DNA of 64,000 nt, taken from positions 1,096,835-1,160,834 of the forward strand of contig NZ_CP021455.1 in the NCBI RefSeq assembly GCF_002158865.1, given 5' to 3'. Positions 542 through 42,193 of this stretch are shown one piece after another. The translations under genes and the position numbers were made by a program. The DNA is from Comamonas serinivorans (GTDB lineage: Bacteria > Pseudomonadota > Gammaproteobacteria > Burkholderiales > Burkholderiaceae_C). How positions within the stretch are numbered: position 1 is the stretch's first letter; each line of letters starts with the position of its first letter. The notes below the pieces were generated by a model. It did not search any database and was not told the origin of the DNA. It saw nothing but the letters and a program-made list of their open reading frames with translations.

Positions 542-590
542 GGGTATGACTGTGCTTCCGTTGTTTCTACATCGGCAATGAGGCGATACT
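542..590. repeat. nested-palindrome repeat family, copy R0
   Basis: GGGTATGAC...TTCCGTT-GTTTCTAC-ATCGGCAA...GCGATACT. Between the rep stop and the GIY-YIG start. Confidence 0.7.
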
Positions 591-3122: not shown

Positions 3123-3710
3123 TCAAAACTGCACCTTGACGGGCTGCCGCTCGGCCTCGCTTTGCGTGGCCTGCAGCGCGCTGGCGGGCGTGAAGCCGGC
3201 CAGGCGCGCGACGAGCACCGTGGGCACGACCTGGCTGGCCGTGTTGAAGTCCAGCACGGCATCGTTGAACGCCTGGCGCGCAAAGCCGATGCGGTTTTCC
3301 GTGCTCGTCAGCTCTTCGCTGAGCTCGCGCATGGTCTGGTCCGCTTTCAGGTCGGGGTAGGCCTCGGACACCACCATCAGGCGCCCCAGGGCGCCCCCCA
3401 GCAGGCCATCGGCGGCGGCCAGGCCGGCCATGGCCTGGGCGTTGCCGGGTTCGCGCCGGGCCACCGCGGCGGCCGACTGCGCCTGGCCGCGGGCCGCGAT
3501 GACGGCCTGCAGCGTGTCGTGCTCGTGGCTCAGGTACTTCTTCGCCACCTCGACCAGGTTGGGCACCAGGTCGTGGCGGCGCTTGAGCTGCACGTCGATC
3601 TGGGCGAACGCATTGGCGATGCGGTTGCGCAGCTCGACCAAGCGGTTGTAGGCCATGACGGCCCAGACGATCACGCAAGCCAGCACGGCCGCTGCAATCC
3701 ACCATCCCAT
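3123..3710 (-). CDS. lemA: LemA family protein
   Basis: 195-aa product from MGWWIAAAVL. N-terminal TM followed by YNRLV.LRN....A.AQIDVQLKRRHDLVPNLVE, the LemA signature. The longer 3123..4499 ORF is an artefactual extension. Confidence 0.85.
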   Translation of the reverse strand: MGWWIAAAVLACVIVWAVMAYNRLVELRNRIANAFAQIDVQLKRRHDLVPNLVEVAKKYLSHEHDTLQAVIAARGQAQSAAAVARREPGNAQAMAGLAAADGLLGGALGRLMVVSEAYPDLKADQTMRELSEELTSTENRIGFARQAFNDAVLDFNTASQVVPTVLVARLAGFTPASALQATQSEAERQPVKVQF

Positions 3711-4376: not shown

Positions 4377-4406
4377 GGGGAGCCTCCTCGCGGTGTTTTG
4401 ATTCAA

Positions 4407-4459
4407 GGGGGTATGCGCCCATTTCCGTTTAAAGAAAAACGCAAGTGGATGCATACCCC
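4407..4459. repeat. nested-palindrome repeat family, copy R2
   Basis: GGGGGTATGC ... CCATTTCCGTTT-AAAGAAA-AACGCAAGTGG ... GCATACCCC. Confidence 0.8.
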
Positions 4460-4617
4460 ATGCATTGCGTGCGGATAAAGGGTGGCGCCATGCCGTCATG
4501 GCCAGCCATCCCGTCCCGGTGCCTCGGCCCCGCGCATGGGCTCAGGCACTTGGCCAGACGCCGACCCTACGGGCCGCCCGCCAACCGCAGACCCCCCATC
4601 GAGGTGGGTGCCGCCGG

Positions 4618-18518: not shown

Positions 18519-19406
18519 TCAGCGCCCGAAGGCGAACACGGCCGGGTCGTGCTTGCTGGGCAGGGCCACGGCATTCGCCTCGGCGTTCGCCCCGCTGGCG
18601 CGCAGCCAGCTGCGCCACTGGCTCACGCTGCCGCTGCGCGTGTGGCCGCCCGGCAGGGTCAGGCCCCAGCTCAGCGACAGCCGCGTGTTGGGCTGCAAGC
18701 CTTGCACCAGCGCCTGCAGCAGCGCGGCGTTGCGGAACGGGGTTTCGATGGCGATCTGCGTTTGCCCGGTTTTGAGCGCGTGCGCCTCCAGCTGCTTGAT
18801 GCGCGTGCTGCGTTGGCTGGCGTCCTGCGGCAGGTAGCCGATGAAGGCAAAGCTCTGCCCGTTCAGGCCGCTGGCGGCCAGCGCCAGCAGCAGCGACACC
18901 GGGCCGGGCAGGACGACCACGGGCACGCCCAGGGCATGTGCGGCCCGCACCACGGCGCTGCCGGGGTCGGCAATCGCGGGCATGCCGGCCTCGCTGATCA
19001 GGCCCACGTCCAGGCCTTGCTGGGTGGGGGCCAGCCAGGCGCGGGCCGCGGCCTCGGTCTGGCGGCCGGCCTCGTGGGTGCCGTCGTGGTCGCCCTGCTT
19101 GTGCGCGGCGCGCGGCAGTTCGCTGATCTGCATCTGCTGCAGCGGCACGGCCAGCGGGCAGACCTCGCCGATGCGTTTGAGCACGGCCCGGGCCGTCTTG
19201 GCGTTTTCGCACACCCAGTGCGTGATCTGCGAGGCGGTGTGCAGCACGCCGTGGGGCAGCACCTCGGTGATGGGCACACCCGCTTCGCAGCCGAAGTCCA
19301 GCGGCGCCGGCACCAGCACCAGGCGCCCCGGCGCACGCGGGCTTGGTTGCTCGCTGGGGGATGAAGAAACTTCGGCAGTATCGGGATTTTCCGTTGAGTG
19401 CGTCAT
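18519..19406 (-). CDS. SAM-dependent methyltransferase, tetrapyrrole-methylase (RsmI-like) superfamily
   Basis: GLISEAGMPAIADPG...VVVLPGPVSLLLALAASGL...F.F.GYLP. Lies immediately downstream of maf. The annotated start codon and first ~11 codons lie inside repeat copy R9, so the start is uncertain. Confidence 0.65.
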   Translation of the reverse strand: MTHSTENPDTAEVSSSPSEQPSPRAPGRLVLVPAPLDFGCEAGVPITEVLPHGVLHTASQITHWVCENAKTARAVLKRIGEVCPLAVPLQQMQISELPRAAHKQGDHDGTHEAGRQTEAAARAWLAPTQQGLDVGLISEAGMPAIADPGSAVVRAAHALGVPVVVLPGPVSLLLALAASGLNGQSFAFIGYLPQDASQRSTRIKQLEAHALKTGQTQIAIETPFRNAALLQALVQGLQPNTRLSLSWGLTLPGGHTRSGSVSQWRSWLRASGANAEANAVALPSKHDPAVFAFGR

Positions 19407-25444: not shown

Positions 25445-25496
25445 GAGGTATGAGGCTGTGTCCGTTTCAAGGTAAACGGACAGATGGTCATACTCG
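25445..25496. repeat. nested-palindrome repeat family, copy R12
   Basis: GAGGTATGAGG ... CTGTGTCCGTTT-CAAGGT-AAACGGACAG ... GGTCATACTCG. Confidence 0.85.
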
Positions 25497-30722: not shown

Positions 30723-31343
30723 TCAATCGCTGCGGCCGAATCCGGCGACAGGGTGTCGCAGGCGATCGTGGCGGTAGTCCTCGGCGACCTGTGCCCGCAG
30801 CACCTGCCAGTGCGCGCGGGACACATGCTGGCCCAGCGGCTGCCAGGCCGGGTAAGGGTTGTAGACCGCCACGTCGTCGGGGTACAGAAACGGCTGGAAC
30901 TTGAACGGGATGGGCAGCTGCGGTGCGGGCCCCAGGTTCAGCAGGGCCAGCAGACGCGCACAGCGGCCGCGAATGCGCTGCCAGTGTTCGCCCTCCACAA
31001 AGCCGCGGTGCGAGGTGTGCCAGGCCAGCTCGCGCACCACCTCGCGTTTCAAGGCTGGCGGAAAACGGTGCGCGTCGATCAGCCCATGCAGGCGCGGGTC
31101 GTCCAGCACGGCATCGGCCAGGTTCATCAGCTCGAAGTCCTGCAGCACCAGGGCGCAGAACAGCTGGTAGGCCGGGTTGCTGATGCGGTAGCCATGCTCC
31201 TCATCCAGCGTGATGGCGGCTTGGTGCGCGCCGGGGCTCACTGGCGTCAGCGTGCAGGTGTAGAAGTGCGCGAGCTGGGTGGCTGCTGGCAACTGGCCGA
31301 AGTGCAGCAACGCGTGCAGGTGGTTCAGGTCAAGCATCGGCAT
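30723..31343 (-). CDS. hypothetical protein (orphan, no recognised domain)
   Basis: 206-aa ORF, same strand and 77 nt downstream of the SPFH gene, with a 9-bp-stem hairpin (31379..31404) in the gap. Confidence 0.45.
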   Translation of the reverse strand: MPMLDLNHLHALLHFGQLPAATQLAHFYTCTLTPVSPGAHQAAITLDEEHGYRISNPAYQLFCALVLQDFELMNLADAVLDDPRLHGLIDAHRFPPALKREVVRELAWHTSHRGFVEGEHWQRIRGRCARLLALLNLGPAPQLPIPFKFQPFLYPDDVAVYNPYPAWQPLGQHVSRAHWQVLRAQVAEDYRHDRLRHPVAGFGRSD

Positions 31344-31420
31344 CCCCAGTCAGCGTCGCGCACAAAGCGTGGCAACTTGAGCGGCACGGTTCACGGTGCC
31401 GCTCATCCAGTGCTCGGCGC

Positions 31421-32581
31421 TCACCCTGGCTGGCGCAGCGTCACCAGGCCGTTCAGCACCTGATCGAGCCCGCCGACGACGGAGATCTTGTCGATGCGCT
31501 CGGCCACGCGCTCCAGCGTTTCCAGCTCCTTCATGCGCAGGGCGACGGGGTTGCCCTCCATCACCTTGGCGGTGTTCAACAGCGAACGCGTGGCCGCCGT
31601 TTCCTCGCGGCGGCGGATCACGTTGGCCTGGGCCGACTTTTCGGCCTCCACGACCTGGGCGAGGATGGTCTTCATCTCGCCGGGCAGGATGATGTCTTTC
31701 ACGCCCACGCTGTCCAGCGCCACGCCCGATTCAGCCAGGCGCTCGCGCACCTGGGCCAGCACGGCGCCATCGATGGCGGCCTTGTTTTCCAGCAACGCAT
31801 CCAGGTTCTGTTCGCCCACGGCGGCGCGCAGGCCGAATTGCAGCTCGCGGTAGACGTGGTCGGCTGGCTTGGGCATGCGCGCCAGCGCGCGCTGCACGTC
31901 GGTGAAGTGCCACACGGCCGAGAGGTTCAGTCGCAGGCCCACCTTGTCACGGGTCAGGATTTCCTGGCCATTCACCTCGGCGATCTGCGCTCGCAGGTCC
32001 ACGGTGCTCACGCTCACCTGACGGTTGAAGCGCCAGAAGCCATGCACGCCTGCCGGCAGCAGCGCTTGCATCTGGCCGTCCAGCGTGAGCACGCCAGCGT
32101 GGAACTCGGGCACCTGCACCAGCAGCACGCCGTCCAGGCCGCGCACGGCGCGCGGGCGCAGTGCCACGCTGTGCAGCTTGGCCAGCAACTCGGCGGGCAG
32201 GCGCGCGTCGGCGCTCAGGTCGACCACGTCCACGCGCTGTTCGCGCAGGCCGCGCCAGAACAGCTGGCGCGTGGACGGCGGCAGGATCTCGACCAGCACG
32301 CCGTCTTCGTGGCGCAGGCCGACCTCGGTTTCGCCCAGCACCACCTGCACGAACTCGCGGGCCAGCAGGGCCGGCTCGTGGGCTACGAAGTAGTCGGCCA
32401 GCTCGTGCTCAAAGCGCGCCGGCGCGTCCGGTTTGCCCAGCGAAAAGCGTTCCAGCGTCACATCGTCCAGGCCTGTGAACACGCGGTGCTTGCCCGGGCC
32501 AAACAGGCCGGCGAAATCGCCATCGCGCAGCAGCAGCGCGCGTTCGTGCTTTTTGACGGTGAAAATGGTGAATCCCAGCAT
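31421..32581 (-). CDS. SPFH/Band-7 (slipin-like) domain protein without TM segment
   Basis: C-terminal half: VGVKDIILPGEMK.ILAQVVEAEK.AQANVIRRREETAATRSLLNTAK is typical SPFH plus coiled-coil. N-terminal ~180 aa form an extra beta-rich region. RBS GGGAGAG. Confidence 0.75.
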   Translation of the reverse strand: MLGFTIFTVKKHERALLLRDGDFAGLFGPGKHRVFTGLDDVTLERFSLGKPDAPARFEHELADYFVAHEPALLAREFVQVVLGETEVGLRHEDGVLVEILPPSTRQLFWRGLREQRVDVVDLSADARLPAELLAKLHSVALRPRAVRGLDGVLLVQVPEFHAGVLTLDGQMQALLPAGVHGFWRFNRQVSVSTVDLRAQIAEVNGQEILTRDKVGLRLNLSAVWHFTDVQRALARMPKPADHVYRELQFGLRAAVGEQNLDALLENKAAIDGAVLAQVRERLAESGVALDSVGVKDIILPGEMKTILAQVVEAEKSAQANVIRRREETAATRSLLNTAKVMEGNPVALRMKELETLERVAERIDKISVVGGLDQVLNGLVTLRQPG

Positions 32582-32608
32582 GTTGCTCTCCCGGTGTGTT
32601 GTTGGTCA

Positions 32609-32660
32609 TGGGTATGGCCGTGTCGTCATTGATGATCAGTCGCAAAAATTGCCATACCCA
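32609..32660. repeat. nested-palindrome repeat family, copy R14
   Basis: TGGGTATGGC / GCCATACCCA perfect 10-bp outer arms. Interior TCATTGATGA. Lies just upstream of the SPFH start. Confidence 0.8.
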
Positions 32661-32933
32661 AGTTCTGTTCAAGGTGCCCAGCTCGCACAGGCTGCGGGCG
32701 ATCGGCGGGGTGCCGGCGCGCGTGGTCGTGCTCCCGGTTGTGTTGCTGGCACTGGCCTGGGCCAGGTGCACGGCCGCACAACCGCGATGGCGGCTGGCGC
32801 GCCAGGCACCGAAGCGCGAGGCACAGGCAGCCTGTGCGGGCAAGGTGCGCCGGGCGGCAGGACCAAGCCATTCGCCAAGCGCCGCCTTGCCAGGGCGGGT
32901 GGGGCTTTCGCCCCCATCCAAGCGGTGCAAGCA

Positions 32934-33040
32934 CCGCGGCAATGGGCGGGAATCGAACCCGCAGCCGCCACCGAAGTCGCGGTGTTCAACCATGAACAAG
33001 TCTTGGACCGAAACCAAGCGTCACCTCAGCCCATCCGCGG
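32934..33040 (-). ncRNA. tRNA-like structured RNA 3 (canonical T-arm, extended bulged stem)
   Basis: Minus strand: closing stem CCGCGGATGG / CCAT-TG-CCGCGG and a canonical T-arm GCGGG-TTCGATT-CCCGC. Internal hairpins are CTTGG-TTTCGGT-CCAAG, TGTTCA-TGGT-TGAACA, and CCGCGAC-TTCG-GTGGCGG (UUCG tetraloop). It begins ~85 nt downstream of promoter P1. Confidence 0.55.
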
Positions 33041-33134
33041 CATACCGCCCACCCAAGAACGGGTCTGGCGGGCGGCACCGGGCCGCATGCATGCGGCACC
33101 TCGTGCGGATGACTGCGTCCGACAGCAGGTGTCT

Positions 33135-33150
33135 TGCAGACGCCGTGCCA
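33135..33150 (-). promoter_or_regulatory. sigma-54 promoter P1 (divergent from rtcR)
   Basis: Minus strand reads TGGCACGGCGTCTGCA, with GG and GC elements at the exact consensus spacing (TGGCAC-N5-TTGCW). Confidence 0.7.
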
Positions 33151-33280
33151 ACTTCCGGCCCAGGCCGTTTCCGCGTGGAGGCCGCTGCGCCAATGCCTTG
33201 ATTTGCAAGCGGTTCGGTGCCCCTGGCCCGCTGACCTGCGTGTCAGCGGGCGATCGTCGGTGTTTGCTAGACTGAGGACC

Positions 33281-33310
33281 CTTGATTCATCCGGCGCGTT
33301 CTTGATTCAG
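33281..33310 (+). promoter_or_regulatory. candidate UAS direct repeats CTTGATTCA x2 upstream of P1 / at rtcR start
   Basis: CTTGATTCATCC (33281-92) and CTTGATTCAG (33301-10), plus a related CTTGATTTGCAAG at 33197-33209. They lie 130-160 bp upstream of P1 on its template. Confidence 0.35.
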
Positions 33311-33312
33311 CC

Positions 33313-34965
33313 ATGAAACCCATTCACGTCATCACCTTCCTGGGCACCCAGCTGGACAGCGGCAACGGTGCCGGCCGCTGGGAGAAGTGGCGGCCCACCG
33401 TGGCGCTGACCCAGCACGAGGACATGGAGGTCGCGCGGCTGGACCTGCTGCTGACCGGGCCCAGCCACCGGGCGCTGGCCGAGCGCGTGCGCGCCGACAT
33501 CGGCACGGTGTCGCCCGCCACCGAGGTCGTGCTGCACGAGTTGGCCGTGGACGATCCCTGGGACTTCGACGTCGTCTACACGCAGCTGTTCGATTGGGCC
33601 CGCGCGCAGGCCTTCGATACCGAGGCCGCGCAGTACTGGGCGCACATCACCACCGGCACGCATGTGGCGCAGATCTGCCTGTTCCTGCTGACCGAGTCGC
33701 GCGTGCTGCCCGGGGTGCTGTGCCAGACCTCGCCGCCCAAGCGGCAGCGCGAGGGCGCGGCCGGTGCCTACACGCTGATCGACCTCGACCTCTCGCGCTA
33801 CGACGCCATCGCCCAGCGCCATGCGGCCGACCAGCGCGATGCAGTGGCCTTCCTGAAAAGCGGCATCGCCACGCGCAATGCGCGCTTCAACGCGCTCATC
33901 GACGAGGTCGAGCGCGTGGCCGTGCGCTCCACCGCGCCGGTGCTGTTCGTGGGGCCCACGGGCGCGGGCAAGTCCTTCCTGGCCCGGCGCATGCACGAGC
34001 TGAAGAAATCGCGCCACCAGATCAACGGCGCCTTCGTCGAAGTCAACTGCGCCACGCTGCGTGGCGACGGCGCGGCCTCGACGCTGTTCGGCCACAAGCG
34101 CGGTGCTTTCACCGGCGCCGCCACCGACCGGCCCGGCCTGCTGCGCGCCGCCGATGGTGGGCTGCTGTTCCTCGACGAAATCGGCGAGCTGGGGGCCGAC
34201 GAGCAGGCCATGCTGCTCATGGCCATCGAAGACAAGCGCTTCTACCCCCTGGGTTCGGACCGCGAGGTGACCAGCGACTTTCAGCTGGTGGCGGGCACCA
34301 ACCGCGACCTGCGCGCCGAGGTCGCCGCGGGGCGGTTTCGCGAAGACCTGTTCTCGCGCATCAACCTGTGGACCTACGAGCTGCCTGGCCTGGCGGGCCG
34401 GCCTGAGGACATCGAACCCAACGTCGACTACCTGCTCACCCGCCATGCGCAAGCCTCGCGCCGCGCGGCCCGCTTCAACGTCGAAGCGCGCCGCGCCTAC
34501 CTGCGCTTTGCGCAAAGCGGCGAAGCGCTGTGGCGCGGCAATTTCCGCGACCTGTATGCCAGCGTGACGCGCCTGGCGACCCTGGCCGAGGGCGGGCGCA
34601 TCACCGAGCCGCTGGTGGTGGCTGAGATCAAACGGCTGCGCTGGATGTGGACGCGCGACAGCGCGGTGGCGGCGCCCGGCGCGCGCGCCTCGGGGGGCTC
34701 GCCGGGGGCGATGGCGGTCGATGCGGCGAGCGTGGACCTGGCCGACTTCTACGACGAAGCGGCCCTGGAGCAGATCGACCTGTTCGACCGCGTGCAGCTG
34801 CAGGGCGTCATCGCGGTGTGCCAGCGCTCGCGCACGCTGTCGGACGCGGGGCGCCAGCTGTACCAGGCCTCGCGGGCGCAACGCGCGGCGTTGAACGATT
34901 CGGACCGCCTGCGCAAGTACCTGGCCAAGTTCAACCTGAGCTGGGACCGCGTCAGCACACGATGA
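33313..34965 (+). CDS. rtcR: sigma-54-dependent transcriptional regulator RtcR (CARF-AAA+-HTH)
   Basis: Collinear over the full length with E. coli RtcR as I recall it: WEKWRPTV N-terminal region, HITTGTHVAQICLFLL, GPTGAGKSFLARR, GAFTGA loop, FLDEIGELG, and C-terminal DRLRKYLAKF HTH. Confidence 0.85.
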   Translation: MKPIHVITFLGTQLDSGNGAGRWEKWRPTVALTQHEDMEVARLDLLLTGPSHRALAERVRADIGTVSPATEVVLHELAVDDPWDFDVVYTQLFDWARAQAFDTEAAQYWAHITTGTHVAQICLFLLTESRVLPGVLCQTSPPKRQREGAAGAYTLIDLDLSRYDAIAQRHAADQRDAVAFLKSGIATRNARFNALIDEVERVAVRSTAPVLFVGPTGAGKSFLARRMHELKKSRHQINGAFVEVNCATLRGDGAASTLFGHKRGAFTGAATDRPGLLRAADGGLLFLDEIGELGADEQAMLLMAIEDKRFYPLGSDREVTSDFQLVAGTNRDLRAEVAAGRFREDLFSRINLWTYELPGLAGRPEDIEPNVDYLLTRHAQASRRAARFNVEARRAYLRFAQSGEALWRGNFRDLYASVTRLATLAEGGRITEPLVVAEIKRLRWMWTRDSAVAAPGARASGGSPGAMAVDAASVDLADFYDEAALEQIDLFDRVQLQGVIAVCQRSRTLSDAGRQLYQASRAQRAALNDSDRLRKYLAKFNLSWDRVSTR

Positions 34966-34966
34966 T

Positions 34967-35019
34967 GGGGTATGGTGTGAATGCCGTTTTCCATGAAACG
35001 GAAATGGCCTGATACTGCC
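34967..35019. repeat. nested-palindrome repeat family, copy R15
   Basis: GGGGTATGG ... TGCCGTTT-TCCATG-AAACGGAA ... CTGATACTGCC. Starts 2 nt after the rtcR stop. Confidence 0.85.
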
Positions 35020-35133
35020 AAGGCTAAGCATTCCACAATGGGATGATCAACAGCGCGCCCGCCGGCTTGCACGGTGGGGCGCATGCAGCGGCTGGCCCAA
35101 GGCCGGGTGCACGACATGGAGAGGGAGACGCAC

Positions 35134-35802
35134 ATGGCGCAGTACATCGAGGTCATTGGACAGGCCAGCGTGAGCGAAGTGGCCGTGGAGCAGCGCGTGG
35201 CGCTGACGGTGTCGCACCGCGGCAAGGGCGGTGGCATGTCGGACAAGGTGGTGGCGCACAAGGCCACGCAGCAGCGTGAGCGGGTGATCGCCACGCTGCT
35301 GGCCCACGGCATGCGGGAGCACGAATTGCATGAGGGCGGCATGGACAGCGGCACCTGGCACTTCAAGCGCAAGCGCGAGGTGCACCACAGCCACCGCATC
35401 CTGCTGATCTGCGAGGACGACGCGCGCCTGTTTGCGGCCCTCGAGGCCCTGGCGCCGCTGCAGGACGAGGGCGAGCTTGACTTGCAACTGGACATGCTGG
35501 ACGCCCGCTACGAGGTGCCGGCCGGTGCGCTGAGCGGGGCGCAGCAGGCGGCGGTGGCGCATGCCCGTGAGCATGCGAATGGCCTGGCGCAGGCTGCCGG
35601 CGTGGCGCTGGGCGCGGTGGTGCAGGTGCAAGAGCTGGCGCCGGCGCGGGAGCGTTCGGGTGCCTATGGCGAGTCCTGGTATGGCTTGGCCGCCGCAGGC
35701 GGCGCGGCTGCGGCACCGGCCATGACCCTCTTGGCGAGTAACCAGCGCACGCGCACCTTGAGCTACCGCGTGCGCTTTGCGCTGCAGCGGGCTGTGCCCT
35801 GA
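35134..35802 (+). CDS. SIMPL (DUF541)-like protein, no signal peptide
   Basis: YIEVIGQASVSEVAVEQRVALTV...A...A...A..LAQAAGVALGAVVQVQE pattern. RBS GGAGAGGGAG lies 6 nt upstream of the ATG at 35134. Confidence 0.55.
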   Translation: MAQYIEVIGQASVSEVAVEQRVALTVSHRGKGGGMSDKVVAHKATQQRERVIATLLAHGMREHELHEGGMDSGTWHFKRKREVHHSHRILLICEDDARLFAALEALAPLQDEGELDLQLDMLDARYEVPAGALSGAQQAAVAHAREHANGLAQAAGVALGAVVQVQELAPARERSGAYGESWYGLAAAGGAAAAPAMTLLASNQRTRTLSYRVRFALQRAVP

Positions 35803-35883
35803 CGCGCGTCGTTCGCCGCAACGCCTGGGCCGCGGTGGCCTGAATGTCGGTCCGACCGTGCACTGGGCAGGACGTGGGGCCAG

Positions 35884-35916
35884 TGAATCGCCTGCAACGC
35901 CCCTGCAGACGATTCA
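35884..35916 (+). promoter_or_regulatory. candidate enhancer (UAS) inverted repeat upstream of P2
   Basis: TGAATCG-N19-CGATTCA lies 110-140 bp upstream of P2. It shares the GATTCA core with sites upstream of P1 and P3. Confidence 0.35.
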
Positions 35917-36025
35917 TGGGCGGGCGTAGAGTTCGCATCGAAAGCGATACAGTGGGATCGTGTTCGGCGGTCATGGTGGCGTGCAGCCCTGCTGTCGCCC
36001 TGGGGTGAAGCGGGATGGGCCGAAC

Positions 36026-36041
36026 TGGCACGGCCGTTGCG
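36026..36041 (+). promoter_or_regulatory. sigma-54 promoter P2
   Basis: TGGCACGGCCGTTGCG is a perfect TGGCAC-N5-TTGC. The predicted start lies a few nt before the stem of tRNA-like RNA 1 (36059). Confidence 0.75.
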
Positions 36042-36058
36042 AAGGATGAGGTGAACGT

Positions 36059-36146
36059 GGGCCCAGGTCTGGGGTGGCGCAAAGCGAGCGCGTCGGACTT
36101 GAATCCGAAGGGTGCTGGTGCAAGTCCAGCCCCCAGACCTGGGCCC
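36059..36146 (+). ncRNA. tRNA-like / Y-RNA-like cloverleaf RNA 1
   Basis: Perfect 16-bp stem GGGCCCAGGTCTGGGG (36059-74) / CCCCAGACCTGGGCCC (36131-46). It encloses TG, D-like arm GCGC-AAAGCGA-GCGC, G, anticodon-like arm TCGGA-CTTGAA-TCCGA, AGGGT, and T-like arm GCTGG-TGCAAGT-CCAGC. There is no CCA end. Confidence 0.65.
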
Positions 36147-36292
36147 GCGAAACCCGGGGGCGCGACGGCGCGAGGCAGGCCTTGACGCGGCGGCCGTGTC
36201 GGCAAGGGTGCAGCGAGAAGCGGCTACCAGGCCGGTTGCCACGCATCGCAGCCCGTCGGCCAGCCCGACCGGCAGGGGATGAGGTCAGGTGT

Positions 36293-36373
36293 GCAACGGT
36301 CTGGCGCAGTTCAAGGAGAACGCCCGACCATGCATCGGGAAGGTGCTGGACAAGCCAGCCGCCAGACCGTTGC
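36293..36373 (+). ncRNA. tRNA-like / Y-RNA-like cloverleaf RNA 2 (paralogue of RNA 1)
   Basis: Perfect 14-bp stem GCAACGGTCTGGCG / CGCCAGACCGTTGC. It encloses CA, GTTC-AAGGA-GAAC, G, CCCGA-CCATGCA-TCGGG, AAGGT and GCTGG-ACAAG-CCAGC. The topology matches RNA 1, with compensatory changes in the D-like and anticodon-like stems. Confidence 0.65.
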
Positions 36374-36422
36374 GCATGGGCCAGTCCCCGTCCCGATCCA
36401 CACGAACACAGGGAGAGCGGCC

Positions 36423-39320
36423 ATGGGCCAGCACGACGAAGAGCACTCACCGGACGCCGGTGAGCACCCGGTGCCGCCGGCGCATGCGGCATCCGGGCTT
36501 GCCCAGGCGAACCCGGGCTGGGCAGCCGGCCAGCTTGCACGCGCCCGTGCGGCTTTGGCACAGGCACAGGTACAGCGGGACCCGTCAGGGCCCGACGCGG
36601 CCGGCGCTGCGTCATCCGCGGATACCGACGCTGCAGGCCACGCCGTGGCGCGTGCGCTGGCCAAGGTGAATGCCTGGCGCCAGGCCTTGGCCGGCATGGC
36701 CAGTGGCGAGCTGCAGGTGGGGTCGCGCACGCCGCTGCGCAACGTGGCGGCCTGGCTCACGCCGAATGTGTTGCACGGCGGATTCGCCTCGGGCCAGCTG
36801 ATGGCCGGGGGGCGCGCGCAAGCACACGAGACGCACTGGCTGGCGCAACTGGCGGCCGGTCAGCCGCTGGGCAGCACGCCGACCGACTGTGCCCGGATGG
36901 CCACGCTGGCGGCACAGCCCGTGGACCGCAGCACGCTGCCCCAGAAGCTGGACCGCACGCCGCTGAACGACTGGTTCCTGACCGAGGCGGGCCTGCAGCA
37001 GCTGATGCAGTGGCTGGACGACGGCCGCTGGCGCATCGCCGTGCCCGAGGAGGGCGCCTTGCTGGTGGTGGCCTGGCTGCTGAGGCAGGGGCATGACACC
37101 TCGGCGGCCCGCCTGTTGGACACCCTGTCGCCCTACTGGCACCGCGTTCGCTTTTACCCGCAGCCCGCTGCGACGCCCATGCCGGCGCTCGACCGCGTGA
37201 GCCTGCGCAGCGCGCAGGACGTGATGGCGCAGTTGAACCAGCTGCAGACGCCGCCCGCGGTGCTGGCCCAGCACCAAGCCATCCACGTGTGGCGCCCCTT
37301 GCTCGACGAGCTGGTGCTGCTGTGGCTGCAGGCCGTGCCCGGCGCGCTGCACGGCCCTGACGCTGCCGCGGCCCATGGCGAATCCGGGCGAGGTGCCGAC
37401 GGCGCCGTGACGGATGCGCTGCCGCGCCTGCGTGCCGGCACGCGCGAGGCCGAAGGCGGCTTGCCCCTGGCCGAGCCCGACGCCGACTGGCGGCAGCAGG
37501 CGGCGGCCTGGCGCCTGCGGGCGCGCGAGGCCGAGGCGCAGCACACGCGCAGCCGGGCGCACCGCAAGCCCGGCTCGCACGTGGCGCAGTTGTGGGCCAT
37601 GCTGGACCAGGTGCTGCAAGGTCAGGCCCTGAGCGAGGCACAGCGCCGCCGGCTGCGCTTTGTGCTGGCGTGCCAGGTCAGCGCCCATGGCGTGCCAGGC
37701 GATGCGAGGCACCACACCTGGCGCGCCGCGCAACGGGCGCAGACCGACACCGTGTGGCGCGCCCACTGGGCGTACGCACTGGCCGCGCGCGTGCAGGCGC
37801 AGGGCCCCTACGCGCTGGGCGATGGCCTGCCGGATCTGGACACCGCGCTGCAAGCTGCCACGGCGCAAGAGGCACAACAACATGCGCACCTGCCCGAAGG
37901 CACCGTGGTCTGGCCCAGCCTGCGCCGCAAGCTGCGCCGCGCCCACTTGGCCACCGTGCCGCAGCTGGTGCAAGCCGGCATCGTGCCGTCGAGCGAGGTG
38001 CTGGCCAGCGTGCTGCCCGGCACCACGGGCGCACAGCTGGCGCGCACCATGCCCGATGCGGCCAGCGCGCGGCTGCTGGGCGCGCTGTGGCGTGCGTTTC
38101 GCGGGCGACGCTCGGTGCTGCTGCTGAACCACGAGTCGCAGGTGCGCTTTCACGAGCTGCCCTGGGTGCTGCGCTTGCAGCAGCACGCCTGCGTGCCGGC
38201 GACGGCCGCCGGGACCGAGGGCGATTCGGCACATCGCTGGGACATGGCCGGCCTGGCGCGCAGCCAGGCGTTGGCGCAGCTGGATGCGGCCGCGCGCCTG
38301 GCGCTGACGCAATTCCCGCAATCGGCCTTCCCGAACCCGCTGCTGTGGGAGCTTCGCGCGCTGGCCGAGCAGGGTGGCTGGCAGCCGCCGTGGGTCGAAG
38401 ACATCGCGGCCGACATCTTCATGGGCAGCTTTGGGCCCAAGTTCGGGCAGGCCGTGCACGACGCGCTGCCCTGGTTGCAGGGCAGCCTGTATGCGCAGCA
38501 TTTCCAGCTCGACCTGGAGGCGCTGCGCCTGGCCATGGCGCCGGCCGTGGCCTGCCACGCGGCCTTTCAGCGTTACGCCGAAACGCCAGCGGGCTCACCC
38601 GGCAACCCCGCGGCCAAGCGCGAACAACAGGCCTTGCTGCAGCGCTATCACGCGGCGCCCGACCTGCTGGTGGCGCACCTGCGTGCGCGCACGGGCTGGT
38701 CGGCCGACGCCCGCGGCGTGGGCGCGAATGGCGCCGTCATCGAGCAGATGGGCCTGGTCAGCACGGCCAACTTCGCGCCGCTGGCGCAGCGCTTTGGCTG
38801 GGGCGTGGCCGGTGCCGGTTTGCGCGATGCCACGGCCCAGGCGCGCGAGCTCCAGGGGTGGGCGCAGGCCGCACGCACGGGCTTCGAGCGGCTGTGCGCG
38901 GGGCTGGACCTGGGCGTGCGCGAAGCCGGCGCCATGCTGGACAAGCCGCCAACCCAGATCCAGGCGACAAACCCGGCGGATGCCCATGCGGCAGCGACAG
39001 AAGCCCAGGCCGCCGACCGCCTGCTGGCCGAGCGCGTGCGCCGGGCCGCCACCAGCTGGCGCCAGGTCGTGCTGCTGCTGAGCCTGCTGCCCGCCGAGCA
39101 GCAGCGCGCCAACCTGCTGGGCATGCAGCGCCACCTCGCGGCCTGTGACACCCCCGCCAGCCGGGGCGTGACGCGCGCCCTGGCGCCCCAGCTGGCCGAC
39201 CTGATGGCCTGTGTGCAAGGCCAGGCGCGCGACGCCGGTCGGCCACCGTTCCACGGCTGGACCCAGCCAGGGCAGCGGGGCGTGCTGTTCACCCTGCGCC
39301 AGGGCCTGAAGGCCGGGTGA
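36423..39320 (+). CDS. large orphan protein (965 aa), predicted all-alpha, no recognised domain
   Basis: Longest frame in the region. RBS GGGAGAG upstream of the ATG at 36423. Ala/Leu/Gln/Trp-rich composition, versus an Arg/Gly-rich antisense ORF. Lies downstream of sigma-54 promoter P2 and the two tRNA-like RNAs. Confidence 0.6.
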   Translation: MGQHDEEHSPDAGEHPVPPAHAASGLAQANPGWAAGQLARARAALAQAQVQRDPSGPDAAGAASSADTDAAGHAVARALAKVNAWRQALAGMASGELQVGSRTPLRNVAAWLTPNVLHGGFASGQLMAGGRAQAHETHWLAQLAAGQPLGSTPTDCARMATLAAQPVDRSTLPQKLDRTPLNDWFLTEAGLQQLMQWLDDGRWRIAVPEEGALLVVAWLLRQGHDTSAARLLDTLSPYWHRVRFYPQPAATPMPALDRVSLRSAQDVMAQLNQLQTPPAVLAQHQAIHVWRPLLDELVLLWLQAVPGALHGPDAAAAHGESGRGADGAVTDALPRLRAGTREAEGGLPLAEPDADWRQQAAAWRLRAREAEAQHTRSRAHRKPGSHVAQLWAMLDQVLQGQALSEAQRRRLRFVLACQVSAHGVPGDARHHTWRAAQRAQTDTVWRAHWAYALAARVQAQGPYALGDGLPDLDTALQAATAQEAQQHAHLPEGTVVWPSLRRKLRRAHLATVPQLVQAGIVPSSEVLASVLPGTTGAQLARTMPDAASARLLGALWRAFRGRRSVLLLNHESQVRFHELPWVLRLQQHACVPATAAGTEGDSAHRWDMAGLARSQALAQLDAAARLALTQFPQSAFPNPLLWELRALAEQGGWQPPWVEDIAADIFMGSFGPKFGQAVHDALPWLQGSLYAQHFQLDLEALRLAMAPAVACHAAFQRYAETPAGSPGNPAAKREQQALLQRYHAAPDLLVAHLRARTGWSADARGVGANGAVIEQMGLVSTANFAPLAQRFGWGVAGAGLRDATAQARELQGWAQAARTGFERLCAGLDLGVREAGAMLDKPPTQIQATNPADAHAAATEAQAADRLLAERVRRAATSWRQVVLLLSLLPAEQQRANLLGMQRHLAACDTPASRGVTRALAPQLADLMACVQGQARDAGRPPFHGWTQPGQRGVLFTLRQGLKAG

Positions 39321-39710
39321 GCAGGTCGGGTGAGGTCAGGTGAAGCCAGCGGGGCCATGGGGCCCCATCTTCCAGGTTGGCCCGAATGGTGACCGTGGGT
39401 CTGGGTGCCGGTGCTGCCGCCCCAGGCGTTCGCTGTGGGCGCCTGGCGGACTGGCGCCGAGGAACGGAGGAGCTTGCGCGACAATCCGGCATCCGGTCCG
39501 GGCGAGGCTCGCTAGGACATGGCCATGGCGCGCGGCGGTCAGCACGCGGCGGTGTCGGCCCCGCAGCCGCGCGATCCCGGTGGTCGGGTGCAAGTGCCCT
39601 GTCGGCTTGCGTTCCACGCCAACAGGCCTGCTGCCGTGCCTCGTGCCATGTCAACCGTTGCTTGACGGTCGGCGGGCCCCGTGCCCACGCCGTGTTGTTC
39701 AGAAGTACCC

Positions 39711-40454
39711 ATGCCTTTACGCATCGACGAAGCCATCACCCAGCTGGATCACGGCTGGCTCAGCCATTTGAAATCGCAGGGTTACGGCGGCGATGCCTTG
39801 CGCCAGGCGATCGACCTGGTGCTGTACGCCCAACAGCAGGCGGCGGCGCGCAACAGCGCCGAGTTCAAGGCCGCCATCGCGCGCGTCAACCACCTGGTGG
39901 GGGCGGGCATCGCGTGTGACAACAACGGCGACTACCTGTACACGGCCGAGTGGCGCGACCCGGCTTGCGCCGGGCTGGGCTTCGCCATCGAATACGCGGC
40001 CGACCCGGCCAGCTGGCGGGCCGAGTTCCGCATGCCCGGCTGCTGGCCGCACACCGTGGACAACCTCGACATCACCGACACCCGCGCTGTGGACCACGAC
40101 TTTGCGCTCTGGCTGGCGCGCGCCAGTGCCCGCCATTTCACGCACCTGATCGAACGCCAGCTGCCCGAAGGCGAAGCACTGCGCGCGCCCTGTACGGCGG
40201 CCGTGCGGGCCGGCACCTGGGCCGAATTCGTGTGCCTGCACCCACTGCAACCCGTGGCCCGCCTGGGGCACGAGCGGCTGGAGCAGGCCGCCTGGTCGGC
40301 CCAATACCCCAGTGCCGCCCAGCGCGAGTTGCAGGCCCGCTTCGATGTGCAGAGCGCCTTGCTGCTGCGCTTGATCGTGGTTCAGCAGGCAGCATGGGCT
40401 TGGCATGAAGAGTATGGCGACAATCGCGATGACGATTCAACGGGAAGGCATTGA
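39711..40454 (+). CDS. orphan protein (247 aa), no recognised domain
   Basis: ORF between the 965-aa gene and rtcA on the same strand. The last ~15 codons and the stop lie in repeat copy R16. Confidence 0.5.
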   Translation: MPLRIDEAITQLDHGWLSHLKSQGYGGDALRQAIDLVLYAQQQAAARNSAEFKAAIARVNHLVGAGIACDNNGDYLYTAEWRDPACAGLGFAIEYAADPASWRAEFRMPGCWPHTVDNLDITDTRAVDHDFALWLARASARHFTHLIERQLPEGEALRAPCTAAVRAGTWAEFVCLHPLQPVARLGHERLEQAAWSAQYPSAAQRELQARFDVQSALLLRLIVVQQAAWAWHEEYGDNRDDDSTGRH

Positions 40455-40460
40455 TACTCC
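40410..40460. repeat. nested-palindrome repeat family, copy R16
   Basis: GAGTATGGCG ... ATCGCGATGACGATTCAACGGGAA ... TTGATACTCC. Supplies the last codons and the stop of the 247-aa ORF. Confidence 0.65.
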
Positions 40461-40814
40461 ATTTGATGTGGCGCTTGCTGAGGGCTGCTTGCCCGACACC
40501 GGAAGGCTGGCGTCGACGCAGGGACATGACGCGTGGCCAGCGGTGCATGGGCTCGCCAGCCGCCCGCACAGCGCCCCCAACCCGCTGACTGGGCGTCCTG
40601 ATGCAGCAGGCCTGGCTCGACCTGCCCGTGCTCTTTCGCCTGCATGCGCAGGCGCGTGGCCAACAGGTGGCGCAGCCCGAGCGGGCCGATGGGGTGTTCG
40701 CCATCCAGGGCACGGCCAGCGCGCAGCCTCACACCGTCCGAGACGGACCGCATCCGGGCCGATTGCCTGTGAAGGCGGGCTTGCAAGGGGCGCTGCATGG
40801 ATCGCTGGCGCGCT

Positions 40815-40828
40815 GGATGAATCAAGCC
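40815..40828 (-). promoter_or_regulatory. candidate UAS upstream of P3
   Basis: The reverse complement reads GGCTTGATTCATCC, nearly identical to the 33281 site and ~110 bp upstream of P3. Weaker CTTGATCCGG (40886-95) and TTGATTTGG (40919-27) sites follow. Confidence 0.35.
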
Positions 40829-40934
40829 AGTTTGGCTTGCGGTGGCTGAGCCGTGGCGAGGCGCAGGCGCCCTCGACGCCAAGTGCTTGATCCGGCAAGG
40901 GTTTGCGCGGCTCGCCTGTTGATTTGGCGGGGCC

Positions 40935-40950
40935 TGGCACGCCGCGTGCA
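40935..40950 (+). promoter_or_regulatory. sigma-54 promoter P3 (rtcA)
   Basis: TGGCACGCCGCGTGCA has correct GG/GC spacing and lies 38 nt upstream of the rtcA ATG. Confidence 0.65.
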
Positions 40951-40987: not shown

Positions 40988-42193
40988 ATGCCAACCGACG
41001 ACCAGGTGGAGGCGAAGCCGCGTCACCGTGACCCAGCTCGCACGGCCACCGCCGCAGACACCAAAAGCGTGACCGGCGCAGCGCAGACGGGCCGTGGCGC
41101 AGCCATCGAGATCGATGGCTCGCAGGGCGAGGGCGGCGGGCAGATCCTGCGCACGGCGCTGGCCTTGTCCATGATCACCGGCCAGCCGCTGCACCTGCGC
41201 GCCATCCGCGCCAAGCGGCCCAAGCCCGGGCTCATGCGCCAGCACCTGATGTGCGTGCAGGCGGCCGCGCAGGTCAGCGGGGCCCACATCAGCGGGGCCG
41301 AGCTGGGGGCCACCGAGTTGCGCTTCGCGCCGGGCCCGGTGCGGGCGAGCGCCTACGAATTTGCCATGGCCAGCGCAGGCAGCTGCATGCTGGTGCTGCA
41401 GACCGTGCTGCCGGCGTTGATGCTGGCCGATGCCCCCAGCACGCTGGTGCTGCGGGGCGGCACGCACAACCCCATGGCGCCCAGCTTCCACTTTGTGCGC
41501 GATGCCTTTGCGCCGCTGGTGCAGCGCCTGGGCGCCGGCCTGACGCTGCAGCTGCAGCGGCTGGGCTTTTACCCCGCAGGCGGTGGCGAGGTCACGGCCA
41601 CCATCACGCCTGCGGCCCGCCTGACCCCGTTCGACCTGACCGAGCGTGGCGAGCTGCAGCAGGGCGATGCTCTGTGCCTGACGCCGGGGCTGTCGGGGTC
41701 GATCGCGCGCCGCGAGCTGACGGCGCTGGGCCAGGCCATGGGCTGGGGCGAGGACCGCTTGCGCTTTGGCGAGGCCAGGCAGCACGAGGGGCCGGGCAAT
41801 GCCTTGATCGCCCGCCTGCGCTACGCCCACGTGACCGAGGTGTTCGTCGAGCTTGGGGCCCGCAACCTGTCGTCGGAGCAGGTGGCCGGCAAGCTGGTGC
41901 AGGCCATCCGGGCGTTTCAACGCCGGCCAGGTGCCGCGGTGGGCCCACACTTGGCCGACCAGCTGGTGCTGCTGCAGGCCCTGGCCGTGTGGCAGGCCGG
42001 ACGGACCGGCAGCCAGGCGGATGCGCCCCACGCCGATGTGCCCCAGGCGGATGTGCCGCAAGCACGCTTCTCGTGCAGCGAGGTGACCGAGCACTTGCGC
42101 ACCAACTGCGTGGTGATCGAACGCTTTCTGCCCGTGCGCTGCACGCTGACCCAGGGCCCTGTGTCCCGGGTGACGGTGCGCTGGGCGGGGTGA
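40988..42193 (+). CDS. rtcA: RNA 3'-terminal phosphate cyclase RtcA
   Basis: IEIDGSQGEGGGQILRTALALS..TG.P..L..IRA.R..PGL..QHL. RBS GGGAG upstream of the ATG at 40988. N-terminal ~35-aa extension and a 15-nt x3 in-frame repeat near the C-terminus. Confidence 0.85.
   Translation: MPTDDQVEAKPRHRDPARTATAADTKSVTGAAQTGRGAAIEIDGSQGEGGGQILRTALALSMITGQPLHLRAIRAKRPKPGLMRQHLMCVQAAAQVSGAHISGAELGATELRFAPGPVRASAYEFAMASAGSCMLVLQTVLPALMLADAPSTLVLRGGTHNPMAPSFHFVRDAFAPLVQRLGAGLTLQLQRLGFYPAGGGEVTATITPAARLTPFDLTERGELQQGDALCLTPGLSGSIARRELTALGQAMGWGEDRLRFGEARQHEGPGNALIARLRYAHVTEVFVELGARNLSSEQVAGKLVQAIRAFQRRPGAAVGPHLADQLVLLQALAVWQAGRTGSQADAPHADVPQADVPQARFSCSEVTEHLRTNCVVIERFLPVRCTLTQGPVSRVTVRWAG
42017..42061 (+). 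repeat. 15-nt x3 in-frame tandem repeat inside rtcA
   Basis: GCGGATGCGCCCCAC / GCCGATGTGCCCCAG / GCGGATGTGCCGCAA, encoding ADAPH-ADVPQ-ADVPQ. Confidence 0.7.

Follow-up and report, generated by a model that had tools for sequence, protein, structure and literature searches.

Which DNA sequence brings RtcR to the promoters that it serves? The question is raised by a 64-kb stretch of the Comamonas serinivorans genome (contig NZ_CP021455.1; "the window" below is this whole stretch), which contains rtcR, rtcA (RNA 3'-phosphate cyclase) and three sigma-54 promoters, named P1, P2 and P3. An initial annotation had proposed that a short motif, present at enhancer distance from all three promoters, is the candidate RtcR binding site. 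The analysis described here indicates that the short motif belongs to a 29-bp composite element, complete at P1 and P3 and retained in the closest relatives, and the best inference from these comparisons is that this composite is probably the RtcR operator, or upstream activating sequence (UAS). Coordinates are positions in the window, and promoter distances were counted from the GG of the -24 element.

A 29-bp composite element upstream of P1 and P3

All the short sequences listed in the initial annotation were located in the window. They comprise CTTGATTCATCC (33281-92), CTTGATTCAG (33301-10) and CTTGATTTGCAAG (33197-33209) on the P1 side, the inverted pair TGAATCG...CGATTCA (35884-35916) on the P2 side, and GGATGAATCAAGCC (40815-28), CTTGATCCGG (40886-95) and TTGATTTGG (40919-27), the last abutting the -24 element, on the P3 side. 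The corresponding -24/-12 elements are P1 (TGGCACGGCGTCTGC, 33136..33150, minus strand), which reads toward an SPFH-domain gene, P2 (TGGCACGGCCGTTGC, 36026..36040, plus strand), a perfect consensus match, and P3 (TGGCACGCCGCGTGC, 40935..40949, plus strand), located upstream of rtcA. The placement of the best copies at enhancer distance was borne out, since the proximal ends of the boxes lie 132 and 152 bp from the GG at P1, 110 bp at P3, and 111 and 138 bp at P2.

The enrichment of these words is strong. Five copies of TTGATTCA were found in the window against 0.36 expected, a number reached by none of 100 shuffles; the three exact copies of CTTGATTCA in the 64 kb are all in the rtc locus, and exact ATGAATCAAG occurs twice against 0.03 expected. 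Within positions -60 to -250 of the three promoters the hexamer TGAATC occurs five times (0.21 expected; 0 of 2000 dinucleotide shuffles reached five), and the promoters of relatives are independently enriched for it (4 versus 0.65 expected, P=0.003). A chance similarity of A+T-rich intergenic words could be favored by the shortness of the core and by the lower G+C content of intergenic DNA compared with genes; such an origin is rejected by the composition-matched shuffles and by the conservation in relatives, and can be regarded as effectively refuted.

Judged by their sequence, the TTGATTCA/TGAATCAA boxes form a direct repeat with a 20-bp spacing and make up the two arms of the composite TGRATC-N5-CGCGCY-NNA-TGRATC-AAR. 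The motif is real and non-random, but its unit is this 29-bp arrangement of two TGRATC boxes around CGCGC and not the 9-mer. Exactly two composites without mismatches are present in the window, both of them candidate RtcR sites. The first, C1 (TGAATCAAGAACGCGCCGGATGAATCAAG, 33281..33309, minus strand), covers positions -32 to -4 of the rtcR 5' leader, counted from the ATG, and positions -132 to -160 counted from the P1 GG. The second, C3 (TGGATCGCTGGCGCGCTGGATGAATCAAG, 40798..40826, plus strand), is located -138 to -110 from the P3 GG, in the same orientation relative to P3 as C1 relative to P1. No inverted repeat was found in the composite beyond an internal TGA-N-TCA quasi-palindrome.

The best local alignment between the P1 and P3 regions is a 17/18 match, CGCGC(C/T)GGATGAATCAAG, and nothing longer aligns; therefore, their similarity does not come from a recent duplication, which was ruled out as an explanation. 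Two other identities were considered for these sequences and rejected. The TGGCGCG-N-TTGAT of the rtcR leader is not a sigma-54 promoter, given that by eye its GG-to-GA spacing is one base short and its -12 GC is GA, and an FNR/CRP box (TTGAT-N4-ATCAA) is present as a half-site only.

Two further TTGATTCA copies are located outside the rtc locus, at 4398 and 25408. The former is directly 5' of a REP-like hairpin element and the latter is about 30 bp upstream of another. These hairpins (~50-60 nt, GGTATG...CCGTTT..AAACGG...CATACC) are dispersed in the window (4408-4460, 25445-25495, 34966-35020, ~23643 and ~47015); the one at 34966-35020 directly follows the rtcR stop codon, and hairpins of this type were also found upstream of rtcR in four relatives (L029, L040, L024 and L030).

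Conservation in close relatives

A search for homologous proteins, followed by retrieval of the contigs encoding them, identified a close metagenomic clade with RtcR homologues of 82-87% identity (loci L024-L031 and L040) and RtcA homologues of 68-75% identity (L040-L045). A metagenome scan with RtcR gave only relatives at 58-73% identity.

Composites without mismatches were found in the rtcR leaders of L024-L028 and L030. Copies with two mismatches occur in the L029 and L040 rtcR leaders and also ahead of the rtcA promoters in L040/L041 and L045, while the L042 rtcA promoter has a copy with four mismatches and the L031 rtcR leader one with five. Across 660 kb (the window plus relatives), composites with at most four mismatches were confined to the rtcR leaders and the upstream regions of rtcA sigma-54 promoters of the C. 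serinivorans clade. Orthologous elements are located, counted from the GG, at -107..-139 in L040, L042 and L045, -118..-145 in L024, and -86..-113 in L029, whose promoter carries TGAATC-AATGA-CGCGAA-AA-TAGATC.

De novo Gibbs sampling of the promoter and leader regions of the clade returned the motif (A)TGAATCAA, which recovers C1 and occurs in the same orientation and at a similar distance at window P1, window P3 and the L029 promoter. The half pattern CGCGCY-NNA-NNNATC was found 121 bp upstream of the L024 Ro60 (rsr) promoter, against a background of 0.09 per 10 kb.

In the alignment of five rtcA promoter regions (63% mean identity), the only conserved islands were the composite, a site matching the consensus of integration host factor (IHF), and the -24/-12 element. 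This is the layout expected where an enhancer and an IHF site precede a sigma-54 promoter, an architecture that is textbook for this class of promoters. The comparison with the closest relatives, at rtcR leaders as well as at rtcA promoters, thus supports the proposal that RtcR-linked sigma-54 promoters have a cis-element in common, placed at enhancer distance.

IHF-consensus sites between the composite and the promoters

The P1 region contains AATCAAGGCATTG on the minus strand (CAATGCCTTGATT on the other; 33191..33203), a 13/13 match to the IHF consensus WATCAANNNNTTR that is centred -48 from the GG and was equalled in none of 300 shuffles. An IHF-like site was also found at P3, GATCAAGCACTTG on the minus strand (CAAGTGCTTGATC; 40880..40892), with a 12/13 match and its centre at -50, and four of the five P3 regions in the alignment share CAAGTGCTTG(A/T)T as a conserved island. 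About 20 related rtc promoters, that of E. coli among them, have the IHF consensus with zero or one mismatch at a near-fixed position of -35 to -38. An "rtc IHF binding site" in E. coli is mentioned by Kotta-Loizou et al. (PMC9650030).

The sequences CTTGATTTGCAAG and CTTGATCCGG, which had been listed as related or weaker copies of the motif, are parts of these two matches. Because of the consensus agreement and the near-fixed position in the rtc promoters, they are read here as IHF sites. The third weaker copy, TTGATTTGG, found no support. The window P2 gave no match to the IHF consensus, its best site having three mismatches, which equals the shuffle expectation, unlike the P2-like promoter of L040, where the match is perfect.

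These matches open the reading that every TTGAT box, even a strong one, is bound by IHF or a different nucleoid protein, which would shape the DNA and recruit no activator. In its favor, AATCAAG in the boxes is a perfect WATCAA half, and the full consensus is matched by two of the annotated copies. The sites at 33191-33203 and 40880-40892 meet WATCAANNNNTTR, and each of them is placed between UAS and promoter and is conserved in relatives, whereas the strong TGAATCAAG boxes share the WATCAA half only, without the TTR arm (0-1 of 3 positions). Furthermore, the strong boxes are flanked by the G+C-rich CGCGC core, they are distal to the separate IHF-consensus sites already present at -48/-50, and a 20-bp pairing around a conserved CGCGCY is not an IHF feature. 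We therefore regard a purely architectural role of the strong boxes as very unlikely.

The boxes upstream of P2

The claim that the motif is shared by all three promoters stands for P1 and P3, which have the full composite, but at P2 only boxes with the hexamer core, TGAATCG, were found. Box P2a, TGAATC(G) (35884..35889, plus strand), is located at -143 from the GG and is not conserved in the syntenic L040. Box P2b with its flank (CGATTCATGGGCGGGC as read on the plus strand; 35907..35922) is in the reverse orientation, on the minus strand, at -120 to -105. L040 has GGCGATTCAATGGGCGCA about -100 from its P2-like promoter, a match to P2b that was made by eye, MAFFT having placed that stretch at 35943-35960; from this comparison, the box at 35911 with its GGGCG flank appears to be conserved in L040. 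Weaker sites, or sites in another arrangement, probably serve P2.

A conserved block was also noted upstream of P2 (35935-35950; L040 ~3195-3222), 77-92 bp from the GG, which contains the palindrome GCATC-GAAAGC-GATAC (GNATC-N6-GATNC) and may be a P2-specific activator site. The P2 promoter itself is kept in L040 (TGGCACGGCCCATGC), again followed by the tRNA-like element.

The rtcR leader

The initial annotation had placed two of the P1-side copies over the 5' region of rtcR, and this agrees with the position of C1, which is kept in the leaders of the relatives. A putative extended -10 of a sigma-70 promoter for rtcR (TGCTAGACT, 33265..33273, plus strand) was recognized by eye and by conservation: TG-n-TA(G/C)ACT occurs in the same place in L024, L029, L030, L031 and L040. 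A simple scanner found no canonical -35/-10 pair for rtcR. The putative -10 would put the rtcR transcription start at about 33280, and C1, which starts 7 bp past it, would span about +1 to +30.

In L024, L029 and L040 a Glt-symporter gene lies between rtcR and the nearest sigma-54 promoter, yet the leader keeps TTGAT-N15-TTGAT and GGCGCG. The retention of the element despite the intervening gene argues that it is selected in connection with rtcR expression, and this fits autoregulation.

In none of the lineages examined is rtcR preceded by a Shine-Dalgarno sequence (window 33281-33312 and the corresponding positions); the candidate operator boxes themselves stand before the start codon. This would suit a role of the rtcR-proximal repeats at the mRNA level, either as a translation signal other than a Shine-Dalgarno sequence or as a small-RNA target, with the P3 copy unrelated; UGAUUC/UGAUCC could pair with GGAUCA of the 16S rRNA 3' end, although this pairing is our own conjecture. 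Such a role is highly improbable, if anything slightly more so than that of the boxes as nucleoid-protein sites, since the 29-bp element is also found upstream of the rtcA promoter, in the opposite transcriptional sense and conserved in four to five lineages, and folding of the leader RNA is not significant (z = 0.44).

A perfect 20-bp palindrome, CGCTGAC-CTGCGT-GTCAGCG, was observed at 33229-33248, with the P1 IHF site on one side and the putative rtcR -10 on the other. Its geometry is 5-6-5-like, as in the family element described below, and it is not conserved in L024.

A counterpart element in the wider RtcR family

Motif discovery in rtcR-adjacent regions of many Comamonadaceae had been suggested as a check. 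The motif is restricted to the C. serinivorans clade, and its position is taken by a different element in other Comamonadaceae (Xenophilus, Comamonas, Variovorax and Acidovorax). Exact TTGATTCA was absent upstream of rtcR in 22 genome loci with RtcR proteins 57-73% identical, except for one copy in L014 at the position of the IHF site. Because the element of the other Comamonadaceae is different, searching the whole family for TTGATTCA with MEME would have been unsuccessful.

In the distant RtcR loci the leader contains YTAKC-N6-GMTAR, often followed by N4-TTATCC and then by 2-8 bp to the rtcR ATG. The element was observed 30-60 bp upstream of rtcR in L001, L021, L037, L012-L014, L046, L047 and L003-L009, with an E. 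coli variant in L023 (3240-3268). Two loci outside the discovery set also have it: Variovorax paradoxus shows TTATAATTTTGGATAGCCTTTTATCC-aacca-ATG, and Acidovorax shows overlapping TTATC/CTAG palindromes. In Comamonas and Acidovorax the element takes a palindrome-only form. The E. coli rtcR leader reads ATATC-GTCTTT-TATAA-GG-ATATCT-AAG-ATG.

The 5-6-5-4-6 geometry of the family element equals that of the window clade, YTTGA-N6-YGGCG-N4-YTTGAT. The position is also shared, about 100-130 bp from the divergent -24/-12 element in Xenophilus, Variovorax, Undibacterium and others, and in both types the outer boxes are direct repeats with a 20-bp period. The sequences differ, with TTATC/CTAGC in place of TTGAT(TCA) and a GMTAR centre in place of YGGCG, and neither type was found in the other clade. 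With at most one mismatch, YTAKC-N6-GMTAR does not occur near the rtc promoters of the window or of L024-L031, and its sole match in the window is at 19403.

From these comparisons, we infer that the window composite is the positional counterpart of the family-wide rtcR-leader element, diverged in sequence and also installed at the relocated rtcA promoter. The family-wide element would then be a candidate for the general RtcR operator, one that was not found described in the literature searched. A more far-reaching model can be proposed tentatively, and we hold it somewhat less probable than its opposite. According to it, RtcR would have a tripartite operator (box, centre, box; 5-6-5-4-6) before its own start codon, which would serve at once in autoregulation and as the enhancer of the divergent promoter of the sigma-54 type; all three of its parts would have been replaced in the C. 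serinivorans lineage (TTATC/GMTAR to TTGAT(TCA)/GGCGC) and copied to the relocated rtcA promoter, while the recognition helix hardly changed.

RtcR as the candidate binding protein

The RtcR of the window (33313..34965, plus strand) has a CARF-type RtcR domain, a sigma-54 AAA+ domain and a C-terminal helix-turn-helix (Pfam RtcR, E=6e-76; Sigma54_activat, E=5e-49), and its helix-turn-helix-like C-terminal tail is conserved. It is the only protein with the GAFTGA signature of sigma-54 activators encoded in the 64 kb. RtcR would bind the composite through this helix-turn-helix, and its oligomers on the rtcA copy, or on the rtcR-proximal copy in the case of the divergent P1, would contact sigma-54 RNA polymerase by DNA looping aided by the IHF site centred at about -48/-50. 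As the rtcR-proximal copy is just downstream of the putative extended -10, RtcR bound there would also dampen rtcR transcription, a negative autoregulation.

This arrangement has several features of known bacterial enhancer-binding proteins, whose enhancers are located 80-200 bp upstream of the -24/-12 element, with an IHF site in between and with paired sites. In the PspF and NtrC systems one site overlaps the promoter region of the activator gene, allowing autoregulation, and the same is possible for C1. The difference is that the sites of those systems are inverted repeats, while those predicted here for RtcR are direct repeats 20 bp apart around CGCGC. The E. coli rtcBA system has the same layout: a sigma-54 promoter lies 135 bp from the start codon of the divergent rtcR, an IHF-like site is found at -35, and a candidate operator immediately precedes rtcR, although this operator is ATATC-N6-TATAA-GG-ATATCT in place of TGRATC boxes. 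According to PMC9650030, which cites Genschik et al. (1998), the E. coli rtcBA control region contains an RtcR UAS, the rtc IHF site and the sigma-54 promoter.

Several observations weigh against RtcR as the binder of the composite. Enhancer-binding proteins usually use dyads, and the composite arms are direct repeats. The recognition helix ND(A/S)DRL(R/K)KYL is almost invariant between clades with different boxes; therefore, obvious helix-turn-helix changes do not explain the switch in specificity, and the only clade-specific change is VV to AL/AI, just before the recognition helix. The composite pattern was derived in part from sequences later scored with it, and P2 lacks it, with a best alignment of about 10 mismatches (counted by hand) and no match at seven or fewer. 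Among the relatives, the L043 rtcA promoter has only TGGATCG and no composite, L044 has a degenerate copy 30 bp nearer the promoter, and L024 contains an extra exact ATGAATCAAG (561-570, minus strand) with no sigma-54 promoter nearby. Lastly, the RtcR enhancer was listed as 'NK' in a 2016 review (PMC4987338), and no RtcR enhancer sequence or operator definition was found in the literature searched, where later Rtc papers use the terms UAS or enhancer without a sequence. The extra L024 copy, which lacks the left composite half, follows the stop codon of a MoxR-like AAA gene and precedes the gene that comes next in the Ro60 operon.

Some of these points would suit the operator of another factor, for example a stress-responsive repressor, that coordinates rtcR and rtcA while RtcR binds elsewhere. 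For such a factor the near-identity of the RtcR recognition helix across clades with different boxes would need no explanation, the rtcR copy at about +1 to +30 is in a classic repressor position, and direct repeats are unusual for enhancer-binding proteins. Palindromes with the family 5-6-5 geometry are also found near P1 and P2, and the candidate RtcR sites would be CGCTGAC-N6-GTCAGCG (33229-33248) at P1 and GCATCGAAAGCGATAC (35935-35950) at P2. However, the palindromes at P1, P2 and P3 show no relation to each other, the one at P1 is not conserved in L024, and no further regulator gene is conserved beside these loci. Moreover, the composite is the sole conserved island in the activator zone (-80..-200) of the rtcA promoters. 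Control by another factor is thus considered unlikely, though less so than the other alternatives discussed above, and the assignment of the composite to RtcR is preferred.

Genes and other elements of the locus

The window RtcR and RtcA are 100% identical to C. serinivorans proteins. In nearly all the relatives a divergent -24/-12 element lies at a distance of 125-182 bp from the rtcR start codon, and the divergent promoter of Xenophilus drives SPFH, then rtcB and then rtcA. The Rtc operon of the window is rearranged. rtcA (40988..42193, plus strand; Pfam RTC, E=3e-74) stands alone behind its own sigma-54 promoter and has an N-terminal extension of about 40 residues, P1 now drives only the SPFH/Band_7 gene and a 206-aa open reading frame (ORF; region 30723-33125, minus strand), and rtcB was not found anywhere in the 64-kb window. 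A homologue of the 206-aa ORF is located inside the Ro60 operon of L024 (55% identity).

The untranslated leader from P1 to the SPFH gene is about 540 nt long (32582-33125, minus strand), similar in length to that of Xenophilus L001. It contains a T-arm-like hairpin at 32946-32962 (GCGGGTTCGATTCCCGC) with a weak tmRNA/tRNA-like Rfam match (E=0.044), and the Rfam search of this leader gave only the weak T-arm-like match. The hairpin may be a second tRNA-like or Y-RNA module.

Downstream of P2, a tRNA-like element was found at 36068-36139 on the plus strand, 28 bp past the -24/-12 element and about 16 nt past the predicted start. It scored 52.8 bits with the Rfam tRNA model and was reported by ARAGORN as 'tRNA-???', with an aberrant anticodon loop; the 1013-aa ORF that follows has no Pfam match. 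The arrangement of tRNA-like element and 1013-aa ORF is conserved in L040 (tRNA-like element at 3355-3425), and the element looks like a tRNA mimic of the Y-RNA/YrlA type heading an mRNA. Both rtcA and a tRNA-like or Y-RNA-like element are canonical members of the RtcR regulon (PMC4987338). L040 is syntenic with the window, with rtcR, P2 and the tRNA-like element, a homologue of the 1013-aa protein, a homologue of the ORF at 39711-40454, an extra 726-aa gene, P3 and rtcA.

Implications for RtcR regulation

The composite is best seen as a candidate enhancer of a sigma-54 activator, a feature of an ordinary kind, and as a useful and specific prediction more than a surprise. The distinction between IHF sites and activator sites at these promoters matters for the design of promoter mutants. 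If the tripartite model of the family operator is true, it would be the first explicit model of an RtcR operator, including an E. coli version (ATATC-N6-TATAA-GG-ATATCT), and it would imply turnover of the operator, with determinants of specificity outside the canonical recognition helix. RtcR controls the bacterial RNA-repair (Rtc) and Ro/Y-RNA response, and the 29-bp candidate, together with its counterpart in other lineages, makes the DNA recognition of RtcR, the prediction of its regulon and its autoregulation directly testable.

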